From IMG/VR virus record IMGVR_UViG_2654587540_000008: a stretch of 14,799 nt of DNA; one strand, 5' to 3'. The notes under the pieces are model-generated. The model was not told the origin of the DNA and searched no databases. It saw nothing but the letters and a program-made list of their open reading frames with translations. Both the position numbers and the translations under genes were made by a program. Source of the stretch: a virus (taxonomy: Duplodnaviria; Heunggongvirae; Uroviricota; Caudoviricetes). Shown here piece after piece: positions 2,119-14,799 of the stretch (the first letter of the stretch is position 1; each line of letters starts with the position of its first letter).

Positions 2119-2517
2119 TTATCTGGATTTGTTAACGTCTCTCGTCTCCTCTGGCAGATCTTCATCAAACAACCTGCCCTGCATCCGATCCAGTTCTTCT
2201 TTTCTTACCCGCTTAACCACGCTGTAGACCCACTGAAGCGAAACACCAAATTTGCGGGCCAGTTCGTGGTGGTTGCGTCCGTTAAACTCCCTGAAGATTT
2301 CCCGGTCGCGCTGACTGACCTTCCATACCATGCCCATCGGGAAATAAACGTTTTGCCCGCCCCAGACCTGCATCATTCGGTTCGCGACAGCCTGACCAAT
2401 CTGGTCGGCAATTGCGGGCTCAATATCAATAATCTCGCGAACGGTCTCAGAGGTATGCTGTGCCAGTTCCACCAGGAGTTCCGGCCCTTTACTTCGAAAC
2501 TGATTCAGGTCGCTCAT
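2119..2517 (-). CDS. mor: Mor/C-family transcriptional activator (Mu middle-operon regulator-like)
   Basis: 132-aa ORF. The C-terminal half WGGQNVYFPMG...REIFREFNGRNHHELARKFGVSLQWVYSVVKRVRK matches the Mor/C-family GGQ.VY.P...FNGRN..EL...YGV....VY..I.R.R pattern as I recall it for Mu Mor. AGGAG lies 6 nt upstream of the ATG at 2517. Confidence 0.8.
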   Translation of the reverse strand: MSDLNQFRSKGPELLVELAQHTSETVREIIDIEPAIADQIGQAVANRMMQVWGGQNVYFPMGMVWKVSQRDREIFREFNGRNHHELARKFGVSLQWVYSVVKRVRKEELDRMQGRLFDEDLPEETRDVNKSR

Positions 2518-2938
2518 GTTTTACTCCTGCAGCTCTGCGCTGCCACTTCTTCAGTTTCTCAATAACACTGCTTGCCTGTTCAGTACTGAGCCAGCGCAGA
2601 GCGCTGATGCCCGTTTCCCGCTTGATCCACCGCGCTAATGCATTTTCTGAACGGTCACGAACAATGCCGGCAGCAGCCATTTCAAGCCATAGTGCACGGA
2701 TTTTCCTGGACTGCGGATGGTTATCCAGCGGTAAACCGGAGCTGGCTTTTCCGGCAGGCTTAACGCGAAAGCCTTTCCTTTTCATGGACTCAAGCACGCA
2801 GTTTAGTTGTGTGATATCCATTACTTTGGTTGAGGCCTTACCAGTCAGCCCCTGTAACACCTGGCGGTAGGTGTCTTCATCTAGGCCCAGTTCATTACGG
2901 GCAATATGGATAAGCTGAATCAGTCGTTTTTTCTGCAT
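2489..2938 (-). CDS. GemA-like protein (Mu gp16 / DUF1018-like), immediately upstream of mor
   Basis: 149-aa ORF starting MQKKRLIQLIHIARNELGLDEDTYRQVLQGLTGKAS, resembling the N-terminal motif of Mu GemA-family proteins. Its position directly 5' of the Mor-like gene, with a 29-bp overlap, matches Mu gene order (gemA-mor). Confidence 0.5.
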   Translation of the reverse strand: MQKKRLIQLIHIARNELGLDEDTYRQVLQGLTGKASTKVMDITQLNCVLESMKRKGFRVKPAGKASSGLPLDNHPQSRKIRALWLEMAAAGIVRDRSENALARWIKRETGISALRWLSTEQASSVIEKLKKWQRRAAGVKHERPESVSK

Positions 2939-2939
2939 A

Positions 2940-3143
2940 TCAGCCCCGCTTTTTCAGTCTGCCAGCAGCAATGTCAGTTGCAGCCGGCAGGGTCACAGGC
3001 CAGAACAGTATGACAGCTGTCATATACAGGATGTAATACGCGGTGTCATAGTGGTTACCGAAGCCCAGTGCATAATGAAGCCGGGCACTGCATAATCCTG
3101 CATATGTGTACCAGAAAAGAAAACAGGCAATAGTTTCAGCCAT
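2940..3143 (-). CDS. Small hydrophobic protein, hypothetical
   Basis: The track ORF is 2940..3164; the ATG at 3143 (MAETIACFLFWYTYAG...) gives an 8-bp overlap with the upstream gene. Two hydrophobic segments. Tightly packed within the minus-strand operon. Confidence 0.35.
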   Translation of the reverse strand: MAETIACFLFWYTYAGLCSARLHYALGFGNHYDTAYYILYMTAVILFWPVTLPAATDIAAGRLKKRG

Positions 3144-3543
3144 TATATTTTTTCTCCAGTTCAATATTTTTCAGGTCATTTTCCGCAAACAGGATTGCTG
3201 TTCTGGCACTCCGCAATCGTGCTTTCGCATTTTTTTCTTCACGTTCAAGGCCAGCGACAGATTCACGAAGAGCTTCTCGCTTTTTATGAAGACGATTAAT
3301 TTCATGCACGATATTTTCAGCATTACGGGCACGGTCAAGGATAAATTCAAATGGATCCAGTACAGCCCCACACAGTGAACAGGTCAGCGTCCGGTTGATT
3401 TCAGAGACTGTTGTCCGGGCATGCCGGCACAGGTTTTGTTCGTTATTCTTTCGTTCAGAAATAACCACGTTCAGCAGTTTTTTGGCTTCTGCATCAGGAG
3501 CTGGCTGAAGCAAATGAATAATGTTATCGCTGTCGTTATCCAT
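3136..3543 (-). CDS. Hypothetical protein with a Cys-containing segment and a coiled-coil-like C-terminus
   Basis: The track ORF is 3136..3642; the likely start is the ATG at 3543 (MDNDSDNIIHLL...), with GGAGG 6 nt upstream and an 8-bp overlap with the end of the upstream gene. Contains C..H....C.LCG spacing and a K/E/R-rich C-terminal helix. Confidence 0.5.
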   Translation of the reverse strand: MDNDSDNIIHLLQPAPDAEAKKLLNVVISERKNNEQNLCRHARTTVSEINRTLTCSLCGAVLDPFEFILDRARNAENIVHEINRLHKKREALRESVAGLEREEKNAKARLRSARTAILFAENDLKNIELEKKYNG

Positions 3544-4225
3544 TATATGCCTCCAGTTTCTGTTGTTCCTGCCCACTGACCGGTCGGTGCAGTCTGACGT
3601 TCTGCCCTTCTCGAAACCCCGCATAGCGCGAGGCGTCGCCATTGCGGCTTCTTCCCGGTTTACGCGCTCTGGTGGTTTGCGTTTGCGGGTATTTATGTTC
3701 CAGCCACTGCTGCATCAGTTCACGTTCGTCATCGGTCAGGGCGAAGGACTGTATTTCACTGATAACGGCCAGCACCCAGCCTTCAGCAAACTGGTCACCA
3801 CGGCTGGTACGGGTGGCAGTTTTTATTCTTTTGTTCTGTGTGCTGATATACTGCTGACGCGCCTTTTTCAGCTGGCGGGCCAGCACTTCCCAGGTGTATG
3901 CAGCCAGTGCAGCCCGTTCCCGGTTGCCGTAGAACCCCACACCCGGATATGTGCCGGGGTGAATGATGGAGTTAACACCAAATGCCTCGCGGATGATGTT
4001 CATCAGGCCCAGCATGTAGCGCGGTGGACGGAGACTGCCTGTCGGCCAGTAATGACTGATGGTTTCATCAATATCACTCATGGCAATGTCGGAATGTGTG
4101 ATGCCGTGAACATCCATCAGTTTACGGGCACGGCGCAGTGCCAGAGCGGCTTCGTGTGGGTTGCCGGATGCGGCCAGCGCCAGCAACTTTTTCAGTTTCT
4201 CAATGTGTTTATTCTGGTCTGTCAT
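3536..4225 (-). CDS. DUF2786-like protein (N-terminal KLKKLLALAASGNPHEAALALRRARKLM motif)
   Basis: 229-aa ORF. The N-terminal motif matches the DUF2786 family signature as I recall it. GGAG lies 8 nt upstream of the ATG at 4225, and the start overlaps the upstream stop in an ATGA arrangement. Confidence 0.6.
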   Translation of the reverse strand: MTDQNKHIEKLKKLLALAASGNPHEAALALRRARKLMDVHGITHSDIAMSDIDETISHYWPTGSLRPPRYMLGLMNIIREAFGVNSIIHPGTYPGVGFYGNRERAALAAYTWEVLARQLKKARQQYISTQNKRIKTATRTSRGDQFAEGWVLAVISEIQSFALTDDERELMQQWLEHKYPQTQTTRARKPGRSRNGDASRYAGFREGQNVRLHRPVSGQEQQKLEAYNG

Positions 4226-4845: not shown

Positions 4846-4910
4846 GTTGATCAACTGACTGACTATCGGATCAATATCGGGGGCTGACGGTGAGTGTTGA
4901 ACTGACTGAC
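4846..4910. promoter_or_regulatory. Direct repeats in the divergent intergenic region; candidate operator/promoter elements
   Basis: GTTGATCAACTGACTGAC (4846-4863) and GTTGAACTGACTGAC (4896-4910) share GTTGA..AACTGACTGAC. The first contains the 10-bp palindrome GTTGATCAAC. They lie between the start of the minus-strand operon (4748) and the plus-strand genes. Confidence 0.25.
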
Positions 4911-5171
4911 AAAGGAGGGCGATGTGCGTCACTGGGCATGTCAAATGGTACGTGGTTTACCCTCCTTGATATTCCGGGGGTGGAAACCCTTTTTAATACC
5001 CGTAAAACCAATGACCCGATTGACTGCACACGTTCAAAGGCCCGCAAACTGGCCGATTTGATTGAAGCATGGGAGCCGCCCGACCACTGGTTCTCCGGCA
5101 CCGGCAAATCTGAGGGAAAGGCGCTTCTCATCGCTTTCCTGCGTAACTGCAAGGGTTTTCGCACTTGCTGA
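4890..5171 (+). CDS. Hypothetical small protein; start uncertain (GTG at 4890 or ATG at 4938)
   Basis: Open frame ending TGA at 5169-5171, followed by a GC hairpin (5179-5192) and a T-rich tract. AAGGAGGG at 4912-4919 is poorly spaced for either start. No recognisable domain. Confidence 0.3.
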   Translation: MSVELTDKGGRCASLGMSNGTWFTLLDIPGVETLFNTRKTNDPIDCTRSKARKLADLIEAWEPPDHWFSGTGKSEGKALLIAFLRNCKGFRTC

Positions 5172-5177
5172 CATCAC

Positions 5178-5200
5178 AGGGGCTCCGGCCCCTTCTTCTT
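5178..5200 (+). terminator. Possible weak rho-independent terminator
   Basis: GGGGC (5179-5183), loop TCCG, GCCCC (5188-5192), followed by TTCTTCTT. The stem is short and the U-run is interrupted. Confidence 0.3.
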
Positions 5201-5268
5201 AATCCCCTTTAATATCCGTCACGTCCACTGCCAGACATACTGCTCTGAATTTACAAAGGAGTATGATC

Positions 5269-5604
5269 ATGTCACAGACCCAGTCCGATACTTTTACGCT
5301 GTCTTATCCTTTCACCACTGCTGCAGGTACCAGAATTGAACAGATTGAACTGAAACGCCTGACAGTAAAAGACCTGAAGCAGGTGCGCAAAATCAACAAA
5401 GACCCGGCAGACTGGGACGAACCACTGATTGCCCGTAGCACCGGTATCCTCCCGGAAGACCTCGATAACATGGATCTTGCCGACTATATGGAGCTGCAGA
5501 AACGATTTCAGAAAATCACTGGGCTGGGCAAGAGCGACAAAAACACTGATGCAGGCGCAGGGGCTGCTGGCGAGATGGTTCAGGTTTCAGCCGGGGGAGA
5601 TTGA
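5269..5604 (+). CDS. Tail assembly chaperone (P2 gpE / lambda gpG-like), upstream ORF of a frameshift pair
   Basis: The track ORF starts at 5263; the ATG at 5269 has AAGGAG 7 nt upstream. The protein (..RIEQIELKRLTVKDLKQV...DLADYMELQKRFQKITG..) resembles the gpE family of tail chaperones. It lies immediately upstream of the tape measure gene, as is conserved in long-tailed phages. Confidence 0.75.
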   Translation: MSQTQSDTFTLSYPFTTAAGTRIEQIELKRLTVKDLKQVRKINKDPADWDEPLIARSTGILPEDLDNMDLADYMELQKRFQKITGLGKSDKNTDAGAGAAGEMVQVSAGGD

Positions 5605-5686
5605 TGCCCTCGATACTGACGATCTGGAGATGTGGCTGGAGCAGGCTGAAGAGCAAATCAAAAGCGAGTTCGGCGACAATCAGTAA
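5429..5686 (+). CDS. Overlapping ORF in the +1 frame; putative frameshift extension of the tail chaperone (E'/GT-like)
   Basis: Open in the frame one nucleotide forward of the chaperone frame, overlapping its 3' end and extending 82 nt past its stop to TAA at 5684-5686. A G5 run (5593-5597) lies 5 nt before the chaperone stop. The geometry implies a +1 or -2 shift rather than the canonical -1. Confidence 0.5.
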   Translation: MPVAPVSSRKTSITWILPTIWSCRNDFRKSLGWARATKTLMQAQGLLARWFRFQPGEIDALDTDDLEMWLEQAEEQIKSEFGDNQ

Positions 5687-5778
5687 CAACGTATCACTTA
5701 ACAGCCGCCAGTCGCGGCTGTTCTGCATGGGGTTCAGACACTTCCCTTCCGTTTTTTTGCTTTCAGAGGATAGCCACC

Positions 5779-8244
5779 GTGGCCAGTGAATTTTCAGTCG
5801 GCGTCATTATTGGCGGCATTGTCGGGAGCAGCTTCCGCTCAGCCGTCAGTGGCACCCGACGCGCCCTTGATTCCCTTGGTGATACCTCCCGCCGTCTGCA
5901 GGAACGCCAGAATGCCTTAACCCGGGCAACAGAACGTTATGGTCAGTTGGGTTCTTCCCGGATGCAGCATCTCAACAGCGAGTTGCTGCGGGTAAGCCGC
6001 ACCATGGAGCAAATTGAACGTCAGCAGCGCCGTCTGTCAGCAGTATCAGCCATCGGTGATGCGTTGAAGGCTAACCGCCTGGCGCTCTATGGTCAGGGTG
6101 CAGAAACCTATGCTATTGGCAGAACGCTGGGCGCACCGGTCATGGCCTCGGTTAAACAATATGCCTCGTTTGAATCACAGTTACGGGATATCAGTGTCAC
6201 AGGAGACCTGGATGCAAAACAGGAACGTGCAATTGGCCTGGCTATCAGACAGGCCTCGCTGAAGGTTAACCAACTGCAGGAGTCTCTGTTAGGGGGAGTC
6301 GGACAATTAGTCGCTGATGGTATGGCCCCCGAACGGGCAGCAACGTTTGCAGAGATGCTTGGAAAGACCGCTACAGCAACCAAAGCCGATATGACCGACC
6401 TTGCCAAAATGACTTATGCCTTCAGCGATGCACTCAGAATCACTGATGCGAAAGAACTTGAACAGGCATTTGGTATTGCGGCAACAGGAGCCAAACTTGG
6501 GTCATTTGAGCTGAAGGATATGGCAAAAGCATTACCCGGTATGGCTAAAGCCTTCGCTGCTCGTGGTATTTATGGAAAAGATGCGATTACCCAGATTGTT
6601 GCCAGTCTGGAGGTCGGTAAAGGTAGTGGCTCTGCAGAGGAAGCGGTCACCAATATGTCCAACTGGCTGGCAGCAATGGGCCGCGGAGATACCATCCAGA
6701 AATATGCTAAAGCCGGGGTGGATTACCAGGGGTCAATGCAGAATTACGTCGCTCAGGGTTTTTCGCAGTACGAAGCTTCACTGATGATTGCCAACCGTTT
6801 TATCGACAGTAAAGGCAAAGCGTTCTTGCAGCAATGGAAAGCTGCAGGAGCAAGAGGCGATCAGGAAGGTCAGCAGAAACTCATGGAGTCATTTGGTCTG
6901 GCTGAGGTCTTTACCGATATTCAGACTGTCAACCATTTACTGTCAATGCGACAGGGCTGGGATAAATACCTTTCCAGTAAGCAGGAAATGAATGCTCCGG
7001 CTGCAATGTCTACCCTGGATAAGGATGCTGCAAAGCAGAATGATACGCTTGAAGGTCGCTGGCGCAGAATGCAGATCGGCTTTAATGATTCTGCTATCAG
7101 CATCGGGCAATCCTTGCGTCCGGCTTTGCTCCAGTTGGGTGAAACATTTATTCCTTTAATGGACAGTGTTGGCAAATGGATAGCGGCAAATCCGCAGCTC
7201 GTCAGCAGCACCATAAAGGTTGTGGGCGCATTACTCGCTTTCAGGATGGCCACTATCGGTCTCAAGCTTGGGCTGAACCTCCTTCTTTCCCCCTTTGTAA
7301 GCGTCTGGAAAAATGCTGTTTTACTTCGGGCCAACTGGCTTCGTCTGACGCTCGCACTGGGGGAAGGCGGTAAACTCCGCTGGCTGGTGACAGGCTTTGG
7401 TGCTGTCGCCAGAGGAGCCAGAACACTGGGTGGTGTGCTCTCAGGGGGGCTGGTTCGCGGAATTATGAGCGCCGGGCGTGCCGTTCTCTGGCTTGGCCGG
7501 GCGCTGATGATGAATCCCATCGGTCTCGCTATCACCGCCGTCGCGGCAGCAGCTTACCTTATCTACCGCAACTGGGGCGCGGTCAGTAGCTGGTTTAAAC
7601 AGCGCTGGGCTGACATTCAGGAAGCCTTTAACGGCGGCATCGCGGGAATTGGTAAACTGCTGGTTAACTGGTCTCCGGCAGGTCTGCTTTATAAAGCCTT
7701 TGCGGCTGCGCTGAAATATCTCGGCGTTGATTTGCCGGCGAAATTCACCGACTTCGGTGGTCATCTTATTGACGGGCTGATAAATGGCATCAGAAACAAA
7801 TGGGAGTCACTGAAAACCAGCATAACCGGAATGGGTGACAGCATCAGTGACTGGTTCAGCGAAAAGCTGGGCATCCATTCACCGAGTCGCGTGTTTATAG
7901 GCTTTGGTGACAATATCGCGCAGGGTGCCGCCATTGGCCTGCAACGGACCACTCCGCTTGCTGCACTGGCCGGGCAGCGTCTGGCCGCTGAAATGACACC
8001 GGATGTTCCCCGTATCCCGTCGCCGGAAATCATGGCTGCCGGATATTCAGGCCGTGGCGCAACTGCAACCGGCGGTGGAGCGTCTGGCGGTATCCAGGTC
8101 AGCTTTAATCCTCAGTTTTTCCTCAATGGTAAGGAAACCGCAGCGCCTGCCGGGCTGGCTGGTGCCCTGAATATGAGCCTGCATGAGCTGGAAAAAATGC
8201 TGGAGCGTCTGCTGGCTCAGAAACAACGTAAGGAGTACAGCTGA
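5779..8244 (+). CDS. Tail tape measure protein
   Basis: 821-aa ORF from a GTG start at 5779 (GAGGA 9 nt upstream). N-terminal helical, Q/R/E-rich region, a central glycine-rich hydrophobic stretch (...GFGAVARGARTLGGVLSGGLVRGIMSAG...) and position directly after the chaperone pair are typical of tape measure proteins. Confidence 0.85.
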   Translation: MASEFSVGVIIGGIVGSSFRSAVSGTRRALDSLGDTSRRLQERQNALTRATERYGQLGSSRMQHLNSELLRVSRTMEQIERQQRRLSAVSAIGDALKANRLALYGQGAETYAIGRTLGAPVMASVKQYASFESQLRDISVTGDLDAKQERAIGLAIRQASLKVNQLQESLLGGVGQLVADGMAPERAATFAEMLGKTATATKADMTDLAKMTYAFSDALRITDAKELEQAFGIAATGAKLGSFELKDMAKALPGMAKAFAARGIYGKDAITQIVASLEVGKGSGSAEEAVTNMSNWLAAMGRGDTIQKYAKAGVDYQGSMQNYVAQGFSQYEASLMIANRFIDSKGKAFLQQWKAAGARGDQEGQQKLMESFGLAEVFTDIQTVNHLLSMRQGWDKYLSSKQEMNAPAAMSTLDKDAAKQNDTLEGRWRRMQIGFNDSAISIGQSLRPALLQLGETFIPLMDSVGKWIAANPQLVSSTIKVVGALLAFRMATIGLKLGLNLLLSPFVSVWKNAVLLRANWLRLTLALGEGGKLRWLVTGFGAVARGARTLGGVLSGGLVRGIMSAGRAVLWLGRALMMNPIGLAITAVAAAAYLIYRNWGAVSSWFKQRWADIQEAFNGGIAGIGKLLVNWSPAGLLYKAFAAALKYLGVDLPAKFTDFGGHLIDGLINGIRNKWESLKTSITGMGDSISDWFSEKLGIHSPSRVFIGFGDNIAQGAAIGLQRTTPLAALAGQRLAAEMTPDVPRIPSPEIMAAGYSGRGATATGGGASGGIQVSFNPQFFLNGKETAAPAGLAGALNMSLHELEKMLERLLAQKQRKEYS

Positions 8245-9128: not shown

Positions 9129-9205
9129 TGTTTCTTGAACATATTACCCGTGACGGAGAGCGCTGGGATTCTCTGTGGATGAGGCACTGGCCATTGATGT
9201 GCTGA
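9128..9205 (+). pseudogene. Short out-of-frame leader ORF (MFLEHITRDGERWDSLWMRHWPLMC), possible remnant N-terminus of a deleted or frameshifted tail gene
   Basis: ATG at 9128, 25 codons, in a different frame from the J-like ORF that opens at 9175. The J-like protein lacks the N-terminal part expected for baseplate J proteins. The GDxWDSL motif is reminiscent of LysM-like tail protein X N-termini (weak). Confidence 0.3.
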
Positions 9206-10560: not shown

Positions 10561-11643
10561 ATGGCAAATCTACCCGAAACCCCGCAGTGGGAAAGCGGCA
10601 TCTACCAGATTGAGGTCTCTGACCCCGTTCTGGGCGGACCTGACGGAATTTCTAACCGCCAGGCTAAACAACTGGCCAGCCGAACGTCATACCTCAAACA
10701 GAAGGTCGAAAAAAGCGAAACAGACCTGGCTGCACATATCGCGGCAGTTGACCCGCATACCCAGTACGCGACGAAAGCCAGTCCGACATTCACCGGCACA
10801 CCAACAGCACCTACACCTGCAAATGGTGATAACAGCAAAAAGCTGGCGACGACGGAGTTTGTGGCCAAAGCACTTGCGGCACTTGCAGGCAGCGCCCCTG
10901 AGACACTGGATACGCTTAAAGAGCTGGCTGACGCTCTCGGTAATGATCCAAACTTTGCGACTACGGTACTGAACAAGCTGGCGGAAAAGCTGGCTAAAGA
11001 CCAGAACGGCGCAGATATTCCTGAGCCTGCGCTGTTTGTCAAAAACCTTGGTTTGGGGGAAGGCTCTGCACTGCCCGTTGGTGTGCCTGTTCCGTGGCCA
11101 TCAGCAACACCGCCAGAGGGATGGCTGAAATGTAACGGCGCAGCATTTTCTTCTGAAATGTACCCCAAACTGGCAAAGGCTTATCCCACGAATAAATTAC
11201 CGGATTTACGGGGTGAATTTATCCGTGGCTGGGATGACGGACGTGGCGTGGATGCGGGGCGAACATTACTGGGTGCTCAGGATTTTGCGTTTGAAGATCA
11301 TGCTCTGGGGCTACCTACCAATCAGGGATATGCAGGTATTGAGAAAGGTAGCACTGAAAATGATATTTATGCCGCTTTCTCTGATGGCATGCACTATACA
11401 GGGAATGCAACCAGTAGCGGTCAATGGGATGATTATTCTCAGTCAAAAATCTATATCCGTAGTGATGGTAAACCTGTCGGAAATAACATTGAGTTAGCTA
11501 ATTCAAATGAGGCCTTGCGTTCTTCTTTACGTACTTATAGAGCCAGTACAGGATGGTATAACCCAGGATTAAACAAACCTAAAACAGCTACAGAAACACG
11601 TCCACGCAACGTTGCTTTTAATTACATCGTAAGAGCCGCATGA
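10561..11643 (+). CDS. Tail fibre protein: constant N-terminal part (10561 to about 11047) fused to currently expressed variable C-terminal cassette A
   Basis: 360 aa. The N-terminus has phage tail-fibre repeat-like sequence (VDPHTQYATKASPTFTGTPTAPTPANGDNSKKLATTEFV). The C-terminal part begins with a tail-collar-like module (WLKCNGAAFSSEMYPKLAKAYPTNKLPDLRGEFIRGWDDGRG) and ends ETRPRNVAFNYIVRAA. The crossover site lies inside the gene at 11036-11061. Confidence 0.85.
   Translation: MANLPETPQWESGIYQIEVSDPVLGGPDGISNRQAKQLASRTSYLKQKVEKSETDLAAHIAAVDPHTQYATKASPTFTGTPTAPTPANGDNSKKLATTEFVAKALAALAGSAPETLDTLKELADALGNDPNFATTVLNKLAEKLAKDQNGADIPEPALFVKNLGLGEGSALPVGVPVPWPSATPPEGWLKCNGAAFSSEMYPKLAKAYPTNKLPDLRGEFIRGWDDGRGVDAGRTLLGAQDFAFEDHALGLPTNQGYAGIEKGSTENDIYAAFSDGMHYTGNATSSGQWDDYSQSKIYIRSDGKPVGNNIELANSNEALRSSLRTYRASTGWYNPGLNKPKTATETRPRNVAFNYIVRAA
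11036..11061 (+). other. Serine-invertase crossover site (hix/gix/cix-like), expression-site copy
   Basis: TTGTCAAAAACC-TT-GGTTTGGGGGAA has the 12-2-12 architecture and AAACC nn GGTTT core of hixL (TTCTTGAAAACC AA GGTTTTTGATAA) and gix sites, as recalled. It sits exactly at the constant/variable junction of the tail fibre gene. Confidence 0.7.
11048..11253 (+). repeat. Conserved 5' cassette module, copy A (tail-collar-like domain coding, ~200 bp)
   Basis: Encodes GLGEGSALPVGVPVPWPSATPPEGWLKCNGAAFSSEMYPKLAKAYPTNKLPDLRGEFIRGWDDGRG. Near-identical DNA recurs at 11649, 12193 and, inverted, at about 13990-14194, with a partial inverted copy at about 13592-13700. Confidence 0.85.
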
Positions 11644-11662
11644 AAACGTTGGTTTGGGGGAA
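11637..11662 (+). other. Crossover-site-like sequence at the cassette A/B junction, with a degenerate left half-site
   Basis: CGCATGAAAACG-TT-GGTTTGGGGGAA. The right half and centre are identical to the expression-site copy; the left half retains only the AAAAC core (5 of 12 matches). Confidence 0.4.
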
Positions 11663-11854
11663 GGCTCTGCACTGCCCGTTGGTGTGCCTGTTCCGTGGCC
11701 ATCAGCCACACCGCCAGAGGGCTGGCTGAAATGCAACGGCGCAGCATTTTCTTCTGAAATGTACCCCAAACTGGCAAAGGCTTACCCCACCAATAAATTA
11801 CCGGATTTACGCGGTGAGTTTATTCGTGGCTGGGATGACGGGCGCGGAGTAGAT
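11649..11854 (+). repeat. Conserved 5' cassette module, copy B
   Basis: Near-identical to 11048-11253 with scattered, mostly synonymous substitutions; the encoded peptide is identical through GWDDGRG. Confidence 0.85.
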
Positions 11855-12187
11855 ACAGGACGTGTTTTATTAAGTAATCAAACAGATGCTTTTCAAACAC
11901 ACAGACATAAGACCTATTTTTATGCAGGTATCAACCGTAATGAAATGCCTTTAAAAAATTTACCTGAATCAGAAGAAATGCTGACATTAAGCTCTACAGT
12001 TAATGCCTTGTCTCCAGCCGATATTGATGCCACAAATTCATTAATTGGGAATGACGATTACAACTGTGTTATTGAAGGCAATAAAAACAGTAAACGTACA
12101 GCGACAGAGTTGAATACCAGCTCTACAGGCACAACAGAAACCCGCCCCCGCAATATTGCTTTTAACTTCATTGTAAGAGCAGCATAG
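11651..12187 (+). CDS. Silent alternative tail-fibre C-terminal cassette B (no independent start codon or RBS)
   Basis: Open frame beginning right after the stop of cassette A. It encodes the same 65-aa tail-collar module, then a divergent ~95-aa region, and ends with the conserved ETRPRNIAFNFIVRAA and TAG. The track start is an internal TTG with no Shine-Dalgarno sequence. Confidence 0.7.
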   Translation, partial: GLGEGSALPVGVPVPWPSATPPEGWLKCNGAAFSSEMYPKLAKAYPTNKLPDLRGEFIRGWDDGRGVDTGRVLLSNQTDAFQTHRHKTYFYAGINRNEMPLKNLPESEEMLTLSSTVNALSPADIDATNSLIGNDDYNCVIEGNKNSKRTATELNTSSTGTTETRPRNIAFNFIVRAA

Positions 12188-12206
12188 AAACGTTGGTTTG
12201 GGGGAA
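12181..12206 (+). other. Crossover-site-like sequence at the cassette B/C junction, with a degenerate left half-site
   Basis: AGCATAGAAACG-TT-GGTTTGGGGGAA; same right half and centre as the expression-site copy. Confidence 0.4.
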
Positions 12207-12398
12207 GGCTCGGCGCTGCCTGTTGGCGTGCCGGTTCCATGGCCGTCAGCCACACCGCCAGAGGGCTGGCTGAAATGTAACGGCGCAGCATTTTCTTCTG
12301 AAATGTACCCCAAACTGGCAAAGGCTTACCCCACCAATAAATTACCGGATTTACGGGGTGAGTTTATTCGTGGCTGGGATGACGGGCGCGGAATTGAC
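12193..12398 (+). repeat. Conserved 5' cassette module, copy C
   Basis: Near-identical to copies A and B; the encoded peptide is identical through GWDDGRG. Confidence 0.85.
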
Positions 12399-12665
12399 TC
12401 TGGTCGCAACCTGTTATCTGCACAGAATGATGCAATTCAGAATATTGTTGGTTCTTTTGGGCGTACCCAGCTTTTTAAAGACGTTCTTAGTTCAGGACCA
12501 TTTAGTAGAATTAATCAAGTTTTATCTATTGGTCTAAAGGAAACGGAATTTATTGAGGGTTATGGAGCTTATAACTGGACATTCGACGCTTCTCGAGCGG
12601 TTCGTACAGCATCTGAAACCCGCCCCCGAAATATTACATTTAACTATATCGTGAGGGCGGCTTAA
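12195..12665 (+). CDS. Silent alternative tail-fibre C-terminal cassette C
   Basis: Same conserved 5' module, a divergent middle (..NLLSAQNDAIQNIVGSFGRTQLFKDVLSSGPFSRINQVLSIGLKETEFIEGYGAYNWTFDASRAVRTAS..) and the conserved end ETRPRNITFNYIVRAA, stop TAA at 12663-12665. No start codon context. Confidence 0.7.
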   Translation, partial: GLGEGSALPVGVPVPWPSATPPEGWLKCNGAAFSSEMYPKLAKAYPTNKLPDLRGEFIRGWDDGRGIDSGRNLLSAQNDAIQNIVGSFGRTQLFKDVLSSGPFSRINQVLSIGLKETEFIEGYGAYNWTFDASRAVRTASETRPRNITFNYIVRAA

Positions 12666-12671
12666 TTATGA

Positions 12672-13289
12672 TCAACTGACAGTTGCCAGAGGCATTTCCG
12701 GCCAGTTGATATCCGGCGCAGTGCTGAGGTCAGTCGCATTAAGCGCATCTATAAAATCAAGCACGGCGTTCAGTTTTTCCGTCTCCTGTGGCGTCAACTG
12801 GCGTCCGGCTCGTAGTTTGAGATTTATAAGCTCAACGGATGCCATTGCCTGCTCCTCAAGTTGCTGACGATGCGCTCCGGCAGCTTCCAGTTCTGCAGTG
12901 TGCTGTCGTTCCGTATCTGTCACCCAGTTCTCACCATCCCAGATATCATAGATGGTAGCTGGCTGTTTTACCGTCGTATCAGAAGGGTAATCTCCCGGCT
13001 GTGTGATTTGCACAGCGTTACCATTCTCTGTGCTGTAAACCGTCTCGCCTCTGTGGTCTGGGACATATTTCCAGATGTTCTGGTCGGTATCACGACAGAC
13101 AGCGAAGCCAGGGCGCTCTTCCGGTGGCGCGTCAATGCATGAATGAGCCGGAATTCCAACACCATAAGCGAGATATTCAACAGTGGCAGAGAGATATTCA
13201 CGGTTTTCAGCATCGTAGTTATAAACTGTAATATCGCCTGCAGTTGTAGCGATACCATTCTGATCAAGTACTGCAACAGCGTTATTCAT
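12672..13289 (-). CDS. Tail fibre assembly protein (Tfa; Mu U / P2 gpG / lambda Tfa family)
   Basis: 205 aa. The C-terminus ..LNAVLDFIDALNATDLSTAPDINWPEMP has the typical Tfa ending. The start codon overlaps the stop of cassette D as TAATG (translational coupling). It converges on cassette C with 6 bp between stops. Confidence 0.8.
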   Translation of the reverse strand: MNNAVAVLDQNGIATTAGDITVYNYDAENREYLSATVEYLAYGVGIPAHSCIDAPPEERPGFAVCRDTDQNIWKYVPDHRGETVYSTENGNAVQITQPGDYPSDTTVKQPATIYDIWDGENWVTDTERQHTAELEAAGAHRQQLEEQAMASVELINLKLRAGRQLTPQETEKLNAVLDFIDALNATDLSTAPDINWPEMPLATVS

Positions 13290-13700
13290 TAAATAGCCCT
13301 TACAATATAGTTAAACGCAATATTACGGGGGCGGGTTTCTGTTCCTGTATTCCCTCCGTTGACACCTAACCTGTACACACCACGAGTGCCAATAGCACGT
13401 AGTGAAGATGGAACCTTTACGCCTGACTCATCTGTTTTAACTATCCCTCCATCCCCGTATGTAGCCAGTATACCAGGATTTGTACCTGCACGTGTGCTGT
13501 TTGCAGCAAGCCCTTCACCGGTCCATAACTCCATATAGTGAGTATGATCCATAACCGAATGTGGTTGTGCATTAAGCAAGAAACGCCCTGAATCAATTCC
13601 CCGTCCGTCATCCCAGCCACGAATAAACTCACCCCGTAAATCCGGTAATTTATTGGTGGGGTAAGCCTTTGCCAGTTTGGGGTACATTTCAGAAGAAAAT
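13289..13700 (-). CDS. Alternative tail-fibre C-terminal cassette D (inverted orientation, 5' end truncated by an N run), followed by tfa
   Basis: Minus-strand frame encoding ..SSEMYPKLAKAYPTNKLPDLRGEFIRGWDDGRGIDSGRFLLNAQPHSVMDHTHYMELWTGEGL...TGTETRPRNIAFNYIVRAI. The first ~100 bp of the conserved module are missing where the N run 13701-13710 sits. Confidence 0.7.
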
Positions 13701-13710
13701 NNNNNNNNNN
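13701..13710. other. Run of 10 N at the cassette E/D junction; assembly gap or masked sequence
   Basis: By comparison with the A/B and B/C junctions, about 97 bp of conserved sequence (crossover site plus start of the tail-collar module) is expected here, so the 10 N do not represent true length. Confidence 0.9.
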
Positions 13711-13715
13711 CGTTT

Positions 13716-14194
13716 CTATGCTGCTCTTACAATGAAGTTAAAAGCAATATTGCGTGGACGAGTTATATTAAAAAATGACCCACTTAAAGCAACTTTGGAA
13801 CGGCTATTGGCGTTACCCAGAGATGCGTACCATAAATAATCGCTCCGATAATCAGTTGAGAATGTTTTATCACCGCCATAATCAATGCTATTACCGTTAC
13901 TCATATATGAAATATCAACTGAAGCATCATTGTCATCTCTACCACCAACTAAAGTACCTTTCTGCCACCCAAGCAACTGGCGGCCAGGATCAATTCCCCG
14001 TCCATCATCCCAGCCACGAATAAACTCACCCCGTAAATCCGGTAATTTATTCGTGGGATAAGCCTTTGCCAGTTTGGGGTACATTTCAGAAGAAAATGCT
14101 GCGCCGTTACATTTCAGCCAGCCCGCTGGCGGTGTGGCTGACGGCCACGGAACAGGCACACCAACGGGCAGTGCAGAGCCTTCCCCCAAACCAA
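13716..14194 (-). CDS. Alternative tail-fibre C-terminal cassette E (inverted orientation)
   Basis: Minus-strand frame encoding the full conserved module (one substitution, PPAGW instead of PPEGW), a divergent middle (..QLLGWQKGTLVGGRDDNDASVDISYMSNGNSIDYGGDKTFSTDYRSDYLWYASLGNANSRSKVALSGSFFN) and ITRPRNIAFNFIVRAA. The track's upstream extension to 14228 runs through the N run and is not trusted. Confidence 0.7.
13990..14194 (-). repeat. Conserved 5' cassette module, copy E (inverted)
   Basis: Reverse complement is near-identical to 11048-11253. Confidence 0.85.
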
Positions 14195-14204
14195 NNNNNN
14201 NNNN
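14195..14204. other. Run of 10 N exactly where the crossover half-site of cassette E is expected
   Basis: On the minus strand the sequence reads ...CTTTGTTTTG-N10-TTGGTTTGGGGGAA. The N run replaces the left half-site and lies 22 bp upstream of the invertase start. Confidence 0.9.
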
Positions 14205-14226
14205 CAAAACAAAGAGGATATTTTTC

Positions 14227-14799
14227 ATGCAAATTGGCTACATTCGTGTGTCAACAAATGACCAGAATACAGATTTACAACGAAACGCACTGAACTGCGC
14301 AGGATGTGAACTGATTTTTGAAGATAAAATCAGCGGAACAAAGTCAGCCAGACCAGGATTGAAAAAGCTACTCAGAACTTTATCAGAAGGAGATACGCTC
14401 GTTGTCTGGAAGCTGGACAGGCTGGGCAGAAGCATGAAGCACCTTATCACTCTTATTGAGGAACTGCGGGGAAAAGGGGTTAACTTCCGTAGCCTTACAG
14501 ACAGCATTGATACGTCAACACCCATGGGACGTTTCTTTTTTCACATCATGGGGGCTTTGGCGGAAATGGAGCGTGAATTAATAGTTGAACGAACACTGGC
14601 CGGACTTGAAGCAGCACGTGCACAGGGGCGTATTGGCGGACGCCGTCCGAAACTGACAAAAGAGCAACATGAACAAATAGCAAGGCTGATCAAAAATGGC
14701 TATAGCAGGAAACAACTGGCAATTATTTACGATATCGGCATATCGACGATTTATCGTTATCACCCGGTAGAAAAGCTACAAACTCAAACTGAGTTGTAA
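14227..14799 (+). CDS. Gin/Pin/Cin/Hin-family serine DNA invertase
   Basis: 190 aa. MQIGYIRVSTNDQNTDLQRNAL...DTLVVWKLDRLGRSMKHL...FRSLTDSIDTSTPMGRFFFHIMGALAEMERELIVERT...GRIGGRRPKL is near-identical in motif content to Gin/Pin/Hin as recalled. The catalytic Ser is at position 9 and there is a C-terminal helix-turn-helix. The track ORF from 14074 is an upstream artefact; stop TAA at 14797-14799. Confidence 0.92.
   Translation: MQIGYIRVSTNDQNTDLQRNALNCAGCELIFEDKISGTKSARPGLKKLLRTLSEGDTLVVWKLDRLGRSMKHLITLIEELRGKGVNFRSLTDSIDTSTPMGRFFFHIMGALAEMERELIVERTLAGLEAARAQGRIGGRRPKLTKEQHEQIARLIKNGYSRKQLAIIYDIGISTIYRYHPVEKLQTQTEL

Follow-up and report, generated by a model that had tools for sequence, protein, structure and literature searches.

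Introduction

Frameshifting at the tail assembly chaperone gene is a textbook form of programmed recoding. To our knowledge, nearly all of the characterized tail chaperone shifts are −1 events on a heptamer, and the −2 shift of phage Mu is regarded as an oddity. Here we describe a predicted tail chaperone frameshift pair in a 14,799-nt stretch of phage DNA (IMG/VR record IMGVR_UViG_2654587540_000008, Caudoviricetes; hereafter, the window), in which a gpE-like open reading frame (ORF) is overlapped by a second ORF lying one nucleotide forward. Comparison with homologues suggests that the long form of this chaperone is made by a +1 shift on a UUU_C tetranucleotide at the end of the chaperone domain.

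Shifts of −1, −2 or +1 are used by tailed phages at this gene, with Mu using −2 (the KS10 paper, PMC2628397; the Atkins review, PMC5009743), and the GenBank record of Mu carries a two-piece chaperone coding sequence (CDS) with the remark "verified -2 translational frameshift in PMID 15469818". The Mu precedent that had been invoked in a first-pass annotation of the window is therefore real. Mu gp41/Mu_56 resembles the window pair in that it belongs to PF10109 ("E, or 41 or 14"), has its extension one nucleotide forward, and comes from a Mu-like transposable phage. However, the Mu site is a G run, CGG_GGG_CGA, on which a −2 shift re-pairs Gly on GGG, whereas the conserved site in the window, CGA_UUU_C, has no homopolymeric G run that would permit such re-pairing two bases back, and a −2 shift cannot re-pair there, since it would place the tRNA on GAU. 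The Mu extension also has no recognizable similarity to the LLARWF...EID domain of the window family. In lambda, two chaperone forms, G and GT, have one start in common and are made in a fixed proportion, and they are encoded just upstream of the tape-measure gene (PMC5009743). The window pair would resemble lambda in these respects, but it has no sequence similarity to lambda G or T, and the direction of the shift and the type of site differ (−1 on G_GGA_AAG in lambda). The E/E+E' pair of P2 shares with the window a PF10109 body, a homologous E' and a locus between the tube and tape-measure genes. Its annotated −1 site, GGT_TTT_TTG, likewise lies on a Phe that closes PF10109, no more than ~3 aligned residues from the Phe in the window. 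In P2, though, the shift is −1 on a tandem-slippage heptamer, T_TTT_TTG, with E' in the −1 frame, whereas the window has its extension in the +1 frame and a tetranucleotide, UUU_C.

In Escherichia coli, +1 shifting at UUU followed by a pyrimidine has been described as translational error and not as a conserved programmed site; one such UUU-pyrimidine site was reportedly found in argI by Fu and Parker in 1994. In a cell-free E. coli study, UUU was among the most frameshift-prone P-site codons, and 14% frameshifting was seen at the Mu site (bioRxiv 10.1101/2025.10.02.679949). UUU_C is also the mapped +1 site of influenza PA-X (UCC_UUU_CGU), for which a higher affinity of tRNA-Phe for UUC and E-site effects have been discussed; the same authors expected UUU_C sites to form a wider class in which the A-site and E-site codons are restricted (PMC3498833). 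PA-X would share with the window the slippery UUU_C, the movement of P-site tRNA-Phe onto UUC, and independence from RNA structure (PMC3498833), but it belongs to a eukaryotic system and its A-site codon, CGU, is rare, whereas the window family mostly has the common CAG. Bacterial prfB (RF2, CUU_UGA) offers a further parallel, with P-site +1 slippage onto better or equal pairing and a documented E-site effect (PMC3498833). Unlike prfB, the window site has no A-site stop codon, and the nearest upstream GGAG is ~12 nt away, whereas the Shine-Dalgarno (SD)-like element of prfB is close. No description of a UUU_C (TTTC) shift in tail chaperones was found in the literature searched; one may exist in Xu et al. 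2004, Christie et al. 2002 or Summer et al. 2004 (on BcepMu).

Results

A tail chaperone pair with conserved +1 geometry

The upstream ORF lies in frame 1 of the window (5263 mod 3 = 1) and could begin at an ATG at either 5263 or 5269, the second of which is equivalent to the start chosen by PGAP; its stop codon is at 5602–5604. In a Pfam search it matches PF10109 (Phage_TAC_7) with an E-value of 1.5e-22 and 79.9 bits (cutoff 25), and the match reaches the final positions of the model. The chaperone domain ends at Phe80 (5506–5508), and the rest of the 0-frame product (5509–5601), the coding sequence of which closes with ...GCC GGG GGA GAT TGA, is poorly conserved. The overlapping ORF lies one nucleotide forward (5429 mod 3 = 2) and is open from 5429 to a TAA at 5684–5686, 82 nt beyond the first stop. 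These features, together with a GGGGG run at 5593–5597, had been read correctly in the first-pass annotation, as had their consequence that the two frames fit only a +1 or a −2 shift. Its assignment of the ORFs to the G/GT and E/E+E' kind of tail assembly chaperone pair is likewise borne out, both by the PF10109 match and by the presence of a tape-measure gene downstream, which is the neighbor expected of such a pair (Table 1). The gene position, the PF10109 body, a conserved overlapping ORF without a conserved start of its own, and a conserved slippery sequence were all found, although that slippery sequence, TTT_C, is not a canonical −1 heptamer. The nearest phage records are Klebsiella phage KP12, Escherichia phage Phi06_2974 B and Escherichia phage PhiKM (classified in Bcepmuvirus), all of which are Mu-like transposable phages with P2-like tails.

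Homologous loci were gathered from IMG/VR (80 loci) and from GTDB representative genomes (80 loci), and the frames of their N-terminal and C-terminal parts were assigned by tblastn. Both parts were matched in 168 loci, the window included, from Gammaproteobacteria, Betaproteobacteria and phage records. The layout of the window recurs in 162 of these, representing 130 distinct sequences. The downstream frame is thus conserved, and on sequence comparison the two-frame arrangement is far beyond chance. A −1 geometry is seen in four loci, all from Pasteurellaceae (L007, L164, L165 and L169, including one Haemophilus influenzae locus), where the lambda heptamer G_GGA_AAG stands just before the 0-frame stop; this suggests that the recoding mechanism has been exchanged within one gene family. 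In the other two loci the parts are fused in frame by 1-nt deletions, located about five codons upstream of the UUU_C site in L090 and adjoining the G run in L010. The +1 geometry also extends to distant homologues detected by tblastn in Salmonella S.Kent 1-2-1, a Salmonella Infantis prophage, Ralstonia phage YO107_2 and Pseudomonas phage Bise. All four keep the +1-frame motif xLW..LLA[RK]WF[RH]F.P.EI and have no G run at the equivalent position. Among complete E. coli genomes, the region was found in 637 of 5426.

An invariant UUU_C at the end of the chaperone domain

A shift site shared by the homologues has to lie between the stop codons of the two frames. The +1-frame stop ends 8 nt before TTT in eight distinct sequences, and in locus L158 a 0-frame stop follows two codons past TTT (TTT TTT CGC TGA). 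Together, the stops of both frames confine any shared site to 14 nt around the Phe codon (F−8 to F+5), and TTT_C is the sole invariant element within this interval. Exactly one in-frame TTT_C falls within the permitted shift window of each of the 162 loci with +1 geometry, always where the chaperone domain ends. The Phe codon is TTT in all 130 distinct sequences and TTC in none, and the base that follows is C in 130 of 130, despite the next 0-frame residue varying among Gln, Arg, Leu and His; across homologues, the positional entropy of TTTC is zero. As a background, ~50% of the Phe codons of enterobacterial loci are TTT; in 15 loci with a GC content of at least 0.60, the figure is 72 of 315 (23%). 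Among homologues, the 0-frame tail that follows this Phe is 1 to 31 codons long.

The codons that flank the site are less constant. In the 130 sequences, the Arg codon that precedes UUU is CGA in 109 and CGG in 2, and is never CGU or CGC; several betaproteobacterial loci have TCC_TTT_CGC or GCC_TTT_CGC at the site. The CGA bias agrees with the influence on +1 shifting that has been reported for weak E-site pairing, but it could also be due to common descent. The 0-frame A-site codons (CAG in 92 sequences, CGC in 13, CAA in 11, CTG in 8, CGG in 3, and others) are mostly not rare in enterobacteria. For BcepMu (AY539836, L172, locus 6603–7364), TCC_TTT_CGC is found at the end of the gp41 chaperone domain, nearly identical to the UCC_UUU_CGU of PA-X, and the E'-like motif is present in gp42, which lies in the +1 frame. 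The GenBank record of BcepMu annotates slippage between gp42 and gp43; judged from its sequence, the real frameshift pair is probably gp41 and gp42.

Patterns of variation also bear on where the reading frame changes. Wobble-position variation peaks in the 0 frame upstream of the site and in the +1 frame from ~F+48 onwards. In 124 of the 130 sequences, a +1-frame Trp lies 3–6 codons past the site, whereas the overlapping 0-frame dipeptide takes 10 different forms. This indicates that the +1 frame is already under selection at that point.

The E'-like extension

The +1-frame segment ends in a domain with the pattern xLW..LLARWFRFQPxEID..W..A..QIK. Its alignment to P2 E' has an hhalign probability of 90.9% and an E-value of 1.2e-6. 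Against PF06528 (P2 GpE') the match is below threshold (16.5–17.5 bits against a cutoff of 23; E = 0.003–0.006) and covers model positions 4–36 of 37, and the segment also matches phrog_8286. An NCBIfam search gave no match to either the chaperone part or the extension. By these profile comparisons, the extension is a distant homologue of P2 E'. Its annotation differs among genomes: RefSeq calls the first part a "phage tail assembly protein" and in some genomes lists a 45-aa GpE family protein beside it as a separate entry, and in E. coli IAI39 the extension has no annotation at all. We read the 45-aa CDS as part of the frameshift product and not as an independent gene.

Proposed mechanism

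Taken together, these observations suggest, with a probability that we put at roughly 0.68, that the pair is an E/E+E'-type chaperone of a BcepMu-like prophage with a P2-like tail, the long form of which is produced by low-level +1 slippage in the P site on UUU_C. The short chaperone would come from the majority of ribosomes, which would read 5269–5604 in the 0 frame. In a minority, a pause would occur with tRNA-Phe (anticodon GAA) on UUU 5506–5508 in the P site, and this tRNA would then re-pair one base on, with UUC 5507–5509, replacing a G:U wobble pair with G:C. Decoding would restart at AGA (5510) in the +1 frame. The product would be a 138-aa fusion of the chaperone domain, the linker and the E'-like C-terminal domain (5269–5508 joined to 5510–5683), with the predicted junction, marked by a slash, reading ...ELQKRF/RKSLGWARATKTLMQAQGLLARWFRFQPGEID.... 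The rare CGA codon in the E site may assist the shift, and no downstream RNA structure would be involved. With the common CAG as the usual 0-frame A-site codon, the shift is probably inefficient, and a low level would suit a minor product such as lambda GT. If the roles correspond to those of lambda G/GT, the tape-measure protein would be coated by the short form, and the extension carried by the long form would serve to recruit the tube protein.

Several points weigh against this proposal. The evidence for it consists entirely of sequence comparison, and the 130 distinct sequences are mutually related, so that the counts do not represent independent events. From 6 to 47 nt past the site, the three phases vary equally and no frame is preferred; periodicity alone therefore cannot locate the switch, and the stop bounds and the +1-frame Trp are needed. 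A stimulatory RNA structure downstream of the site was not found with RNAalifold in 29 diverse sequences (3 invariant pairs, −0.91 kcal/mol, no covariation), nor in the window's own fold downstream of the site (z-score −0.10). In the window alone, inspected by eye, no SD-like element close to UUU is evident, the nearest upstream GGAG being the one already mentioned. Neither the usual CAG in the 0-frame A site nor the rare AGA that is the +1 A-site codon of the window favors an efficient shift. Three further in-frame quadruplets in the window permit +1 re-pairing (AAA_A at 5539–5542, and GGG_G at 5560–5563 and at 5593–5596), and minor, lineage-specific shifting may occur at any of these. In addition, the window copy lies in a deletion remnant, so its product may have no function in this host.

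Alternative sites and mechanisms

The first-pass annotation had placed the slip at the G5 run just before the TGA, where tRNA-Gly could slip +1 on GGG_G or the ribosome could shift −2 as in Mu. This idea was reasonable, since the 0 frame of Mu reads GAA CGG GGG CGA where its +1 ORF becomes the sole open one, and the verified −2 site of Mu, CGG_GGG_CGA, is likewise a G5 run. GGG_G would permit perfect +1 re-pairing, the stop two codons on could slow decoding, and the run is kept within the window's own clade. Nor is the run a sequencing error, as it is identical in three independent phage records and present in at least 41 of 128 distinct homologues. As a shift site it was nevertheless rejected on comparative grounds. 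KP12 and Phi06_2974 B share ~90% identity with the window and carry a 0-frame TAG at the equivalent of 5581–5583. In a four-way DNA alignment, both read GTT TAG where the window reads GTT CAG, 10 nt upstream of the run, and 0-frame ribosomes would thus terminate short of it. At least 20 distinct homologues have a 0-frame stop farther upstream still, 2 to 15 codons after TTT. The +1 frame just upstream of the run reads ARWFRFQPGEID in all four aligned sequences; one Arg there is encoded by AGG, AGA or CGG among relatives, while the 0 frame at the same place gives Gln, a stop or Pro, so selection acts on the +1 frame before the run is reached. A product shifted at G5 would lack this upstream peptide (xLW..LLARWFRFQP), which is kept via synonymous changes and aligns with P2 E'. 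The run itself encodes Pro-Gly-Glu (CCG GGG GAG) in the +1 frame of one clade, whereas most of the 128 homologues read QPSE, with Pro-Ser-Glu written via AGT, AGC or TCG and no G run. Mu's CGG_GGG_CGA has no counterpart at the conserved shift position, TTT_C. The +1/−2 chaperone pair and its Mu precedent therefore stand, but the slip site had been set ~90 nt too far downstream, the shift is likely +1 and not −2, and slippage at the G5 run is highly improbable.

It is also unlikely that ribosomes enter the +1 frame at lineage-specific sites in the linker, which in the window would be the AAA_A or GGG_G that precede the G5 run. Both quadruplets permit perfect +1 re-pairing, an in-frame GGG_G is contained in the shift window of 65 of the 130 sequences and an in-frame AAA_A in 30, and the linker has no clear frame preference. 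These quadruplets vary even in close relatives, however (KP12 has GAC GAA AAC and PhiKM has AAC CAG GGC at the position of the A run), and many loci have neither. The conserved +1-frame Trp lies upstream of both, and neither can fit into loci with a 0-frame stop within 2–10 codons of TTT. Independent translation of the +1 ORF from an internal start, without any frameshift, would agree with the separate CDS in RefSeq records and with the ATG at 5549 of the window. In other clades, though, the codon at 5549 specifies Trp, Thr, Ile or another residue, and no conserved start for the extension was found in the interval from the slip site to the WF motif. Of the 128 distinct sequences that have the WF landmark, only 21 combine a start codon with an SD-like motif in this interval, and 10 have no ATG, GTG or TTG. 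Conservation of the +1 frame, Trp included, begins upstream of 5549, and P2 E' itself has no ribosome binding site and is expressed as a frameshift extension of E (PMC3931495, citing Christie 2002). An internal start is thus distinctly improbable. A change of frame at the RNA level, through transcriptional slippage by RNA polymerase, has precedents in some bacterial genes (PMC5009743), and TTTTTTC occurs at the site in three distinct homologue sequences. The invariant C after TTT fits codon-anticodon re-pairing but would have no role in polymerase slippage. The conserved element comprises merely three T residues, far below the run lengths at which polymerases slip, and this explanation is barely credible.

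Twelve "fused" database proteins (P0001–P0012) were retrieved, seven of which are 138-aa single-ORF proteins. They were rejected as evidence for the junction, since they contain 1-nt indels at differing positions and so carry no information on the natural shift site; they are probably sequencing errors or mutants. The indels fall mostly in the A5 (5539–5543) or G5 homopolymers, and the proteins come from public assemblies, mostly Logan. Six of the twelve, several of them in separate database clusters, share a G5 deletion (...VSAGEIDALD or ...VSAREIDALD).

Prophage context

The window prophage is a deletion remnant of the BcepMu-like type that has lost its head, sheath, tube and several baseplate genes. 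In intact relatives the gene order is sheath, tube, a 93-aa ORF, chaperone and tape measure; the window retains only the last ~72 nt of the tube gene, and 3' of the tape-measure gene come genes that resemble P2 gpU, J and I. Leftward from 4816 there are no head, sheath or tube genes, and the remnant of the tube gene is joined directly to Mu-like early genes. Compared with the intact prophage of E. coli 12089, ~2.5 kb is also gone between the gpU-like gene and a 5'-truncated J gene. The genes lost in this second deletion are gpX, gpD, V and W, and the junction (9169–9175) has a 7-bp overlap.

Table 1 Features of the window that bear on the chaperone pair and its surroundings.
Feature	Position	Strand	Remarks
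Mor	2119–2517	−	Mu-like regulatory/early gene
GemA	2489–2938	−	Mu-like regulatory/early gene
DUF2786/DUF7168 protein	3536–4225	−	Within the Mu-like regulatory/early gene block 2119–4225
Tail assembly chaperone ORF (gpE-like short product, 111 aa)	5269–5604	+	PF10109; phrog_166 "tail protein"
Proposed +1 shift site, CGA_UUU_C	5503–5509	+	UUU 5506–5508 in the P site, predicted to re-pair on UUC 5507–5509
Predicted +1-frame coding segment after the shift	5510–5686	+	58 aa plus TAA 5684–5686; linker with conserved Trp (5525–5527), then E'-like domain
45-aa CDS "GpE family phage tail protein"	5549–5686	+	From ATG 5549; separate gene in RefSeq/PGAP, E. coli 12089 record
Tape-measure protein gene	5779–8244	+	PF10145 PhageMin_Tail, E = 2.2e-15; tape measure in the PhiKM and E. 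coli 12089 annotation

The 93-aa ORF is at 4890–5171 and matches phrog_1239, with a weak match to DUF7739. Between it and the chaperone gene is a terminator-like GC hairpin at 5178–5203 (AGGGGCTCCGGCCCCT) followed by TCTTCTT, placed inside what is expected to be a single late tail operon. A second, 9-bp hairpin lies between the E' stop and the start of the tape-measure gene (arms 5700–5708 and 5714–5722, loop 5709–5713). KP12, PhiKM and Phi06_2974 B share its stem core unchanged but not its loop, and it has no T tail and is thus not a standard terminator. At the right end, 10989–14799 resembles a multi-cassette invertible tail-fiber region, in which a Collar-domain cassette is present in three direct repeats and inverted cassette copies occupy 13540–14194 (214-nt arms, 93% complementary). 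This region also contains a tail-fiber assembly gene on the minus strand and a serine invertase gene (Resolvase plus HTH_7; 14074–14799) that runs off the end of the window, a layout similar to those of the Gin, Cin and Min inversion systems.

Discussion

Beyond the window, the comparison raises the prospect, which we offer tentatively and at somewhat less than even odds, that structure-free programmed +1 shifting on UUU_C is a conserved route to the long chaperone in many P2-tailed, BcepMu-like and related prophages of Gamma- and Betaproteobacteria, where it is unannotated in the records examined. PF10109 would then have four recoding solutions: −1 on T6G in P2, −1 on G_GGA_AAG in Pasteurellaceae, −2 on G5 in Mu, and +1 on UUU_C here. 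If this is true, these prophages would provide a natural bacterial system of +1 UUU_C slippage that has neither a stop codon nor an RNA structure, nor, in the window, an evident SD-like element close by. Such a system would allow direct tests of how P-site re-pairing and an E-site CGA set a low, fixed frameshift ratio.

There may also be consequences for annotation. The long chaperone form would be missing or split in the annotation of hundreds of prophages of E. coli, Salmonella, Klebsiella, Pectobacterium and Burkholderiales, as well as of tailocin-like clusters, and frameshift predictors that are based on heptamers or homopolymer runs would choose the wrong site here. For the chaperone family itself, the finding would mean that homologous genes have exchanged recoding mechanisms while the point in the protein at which the shift takes place has been retained.

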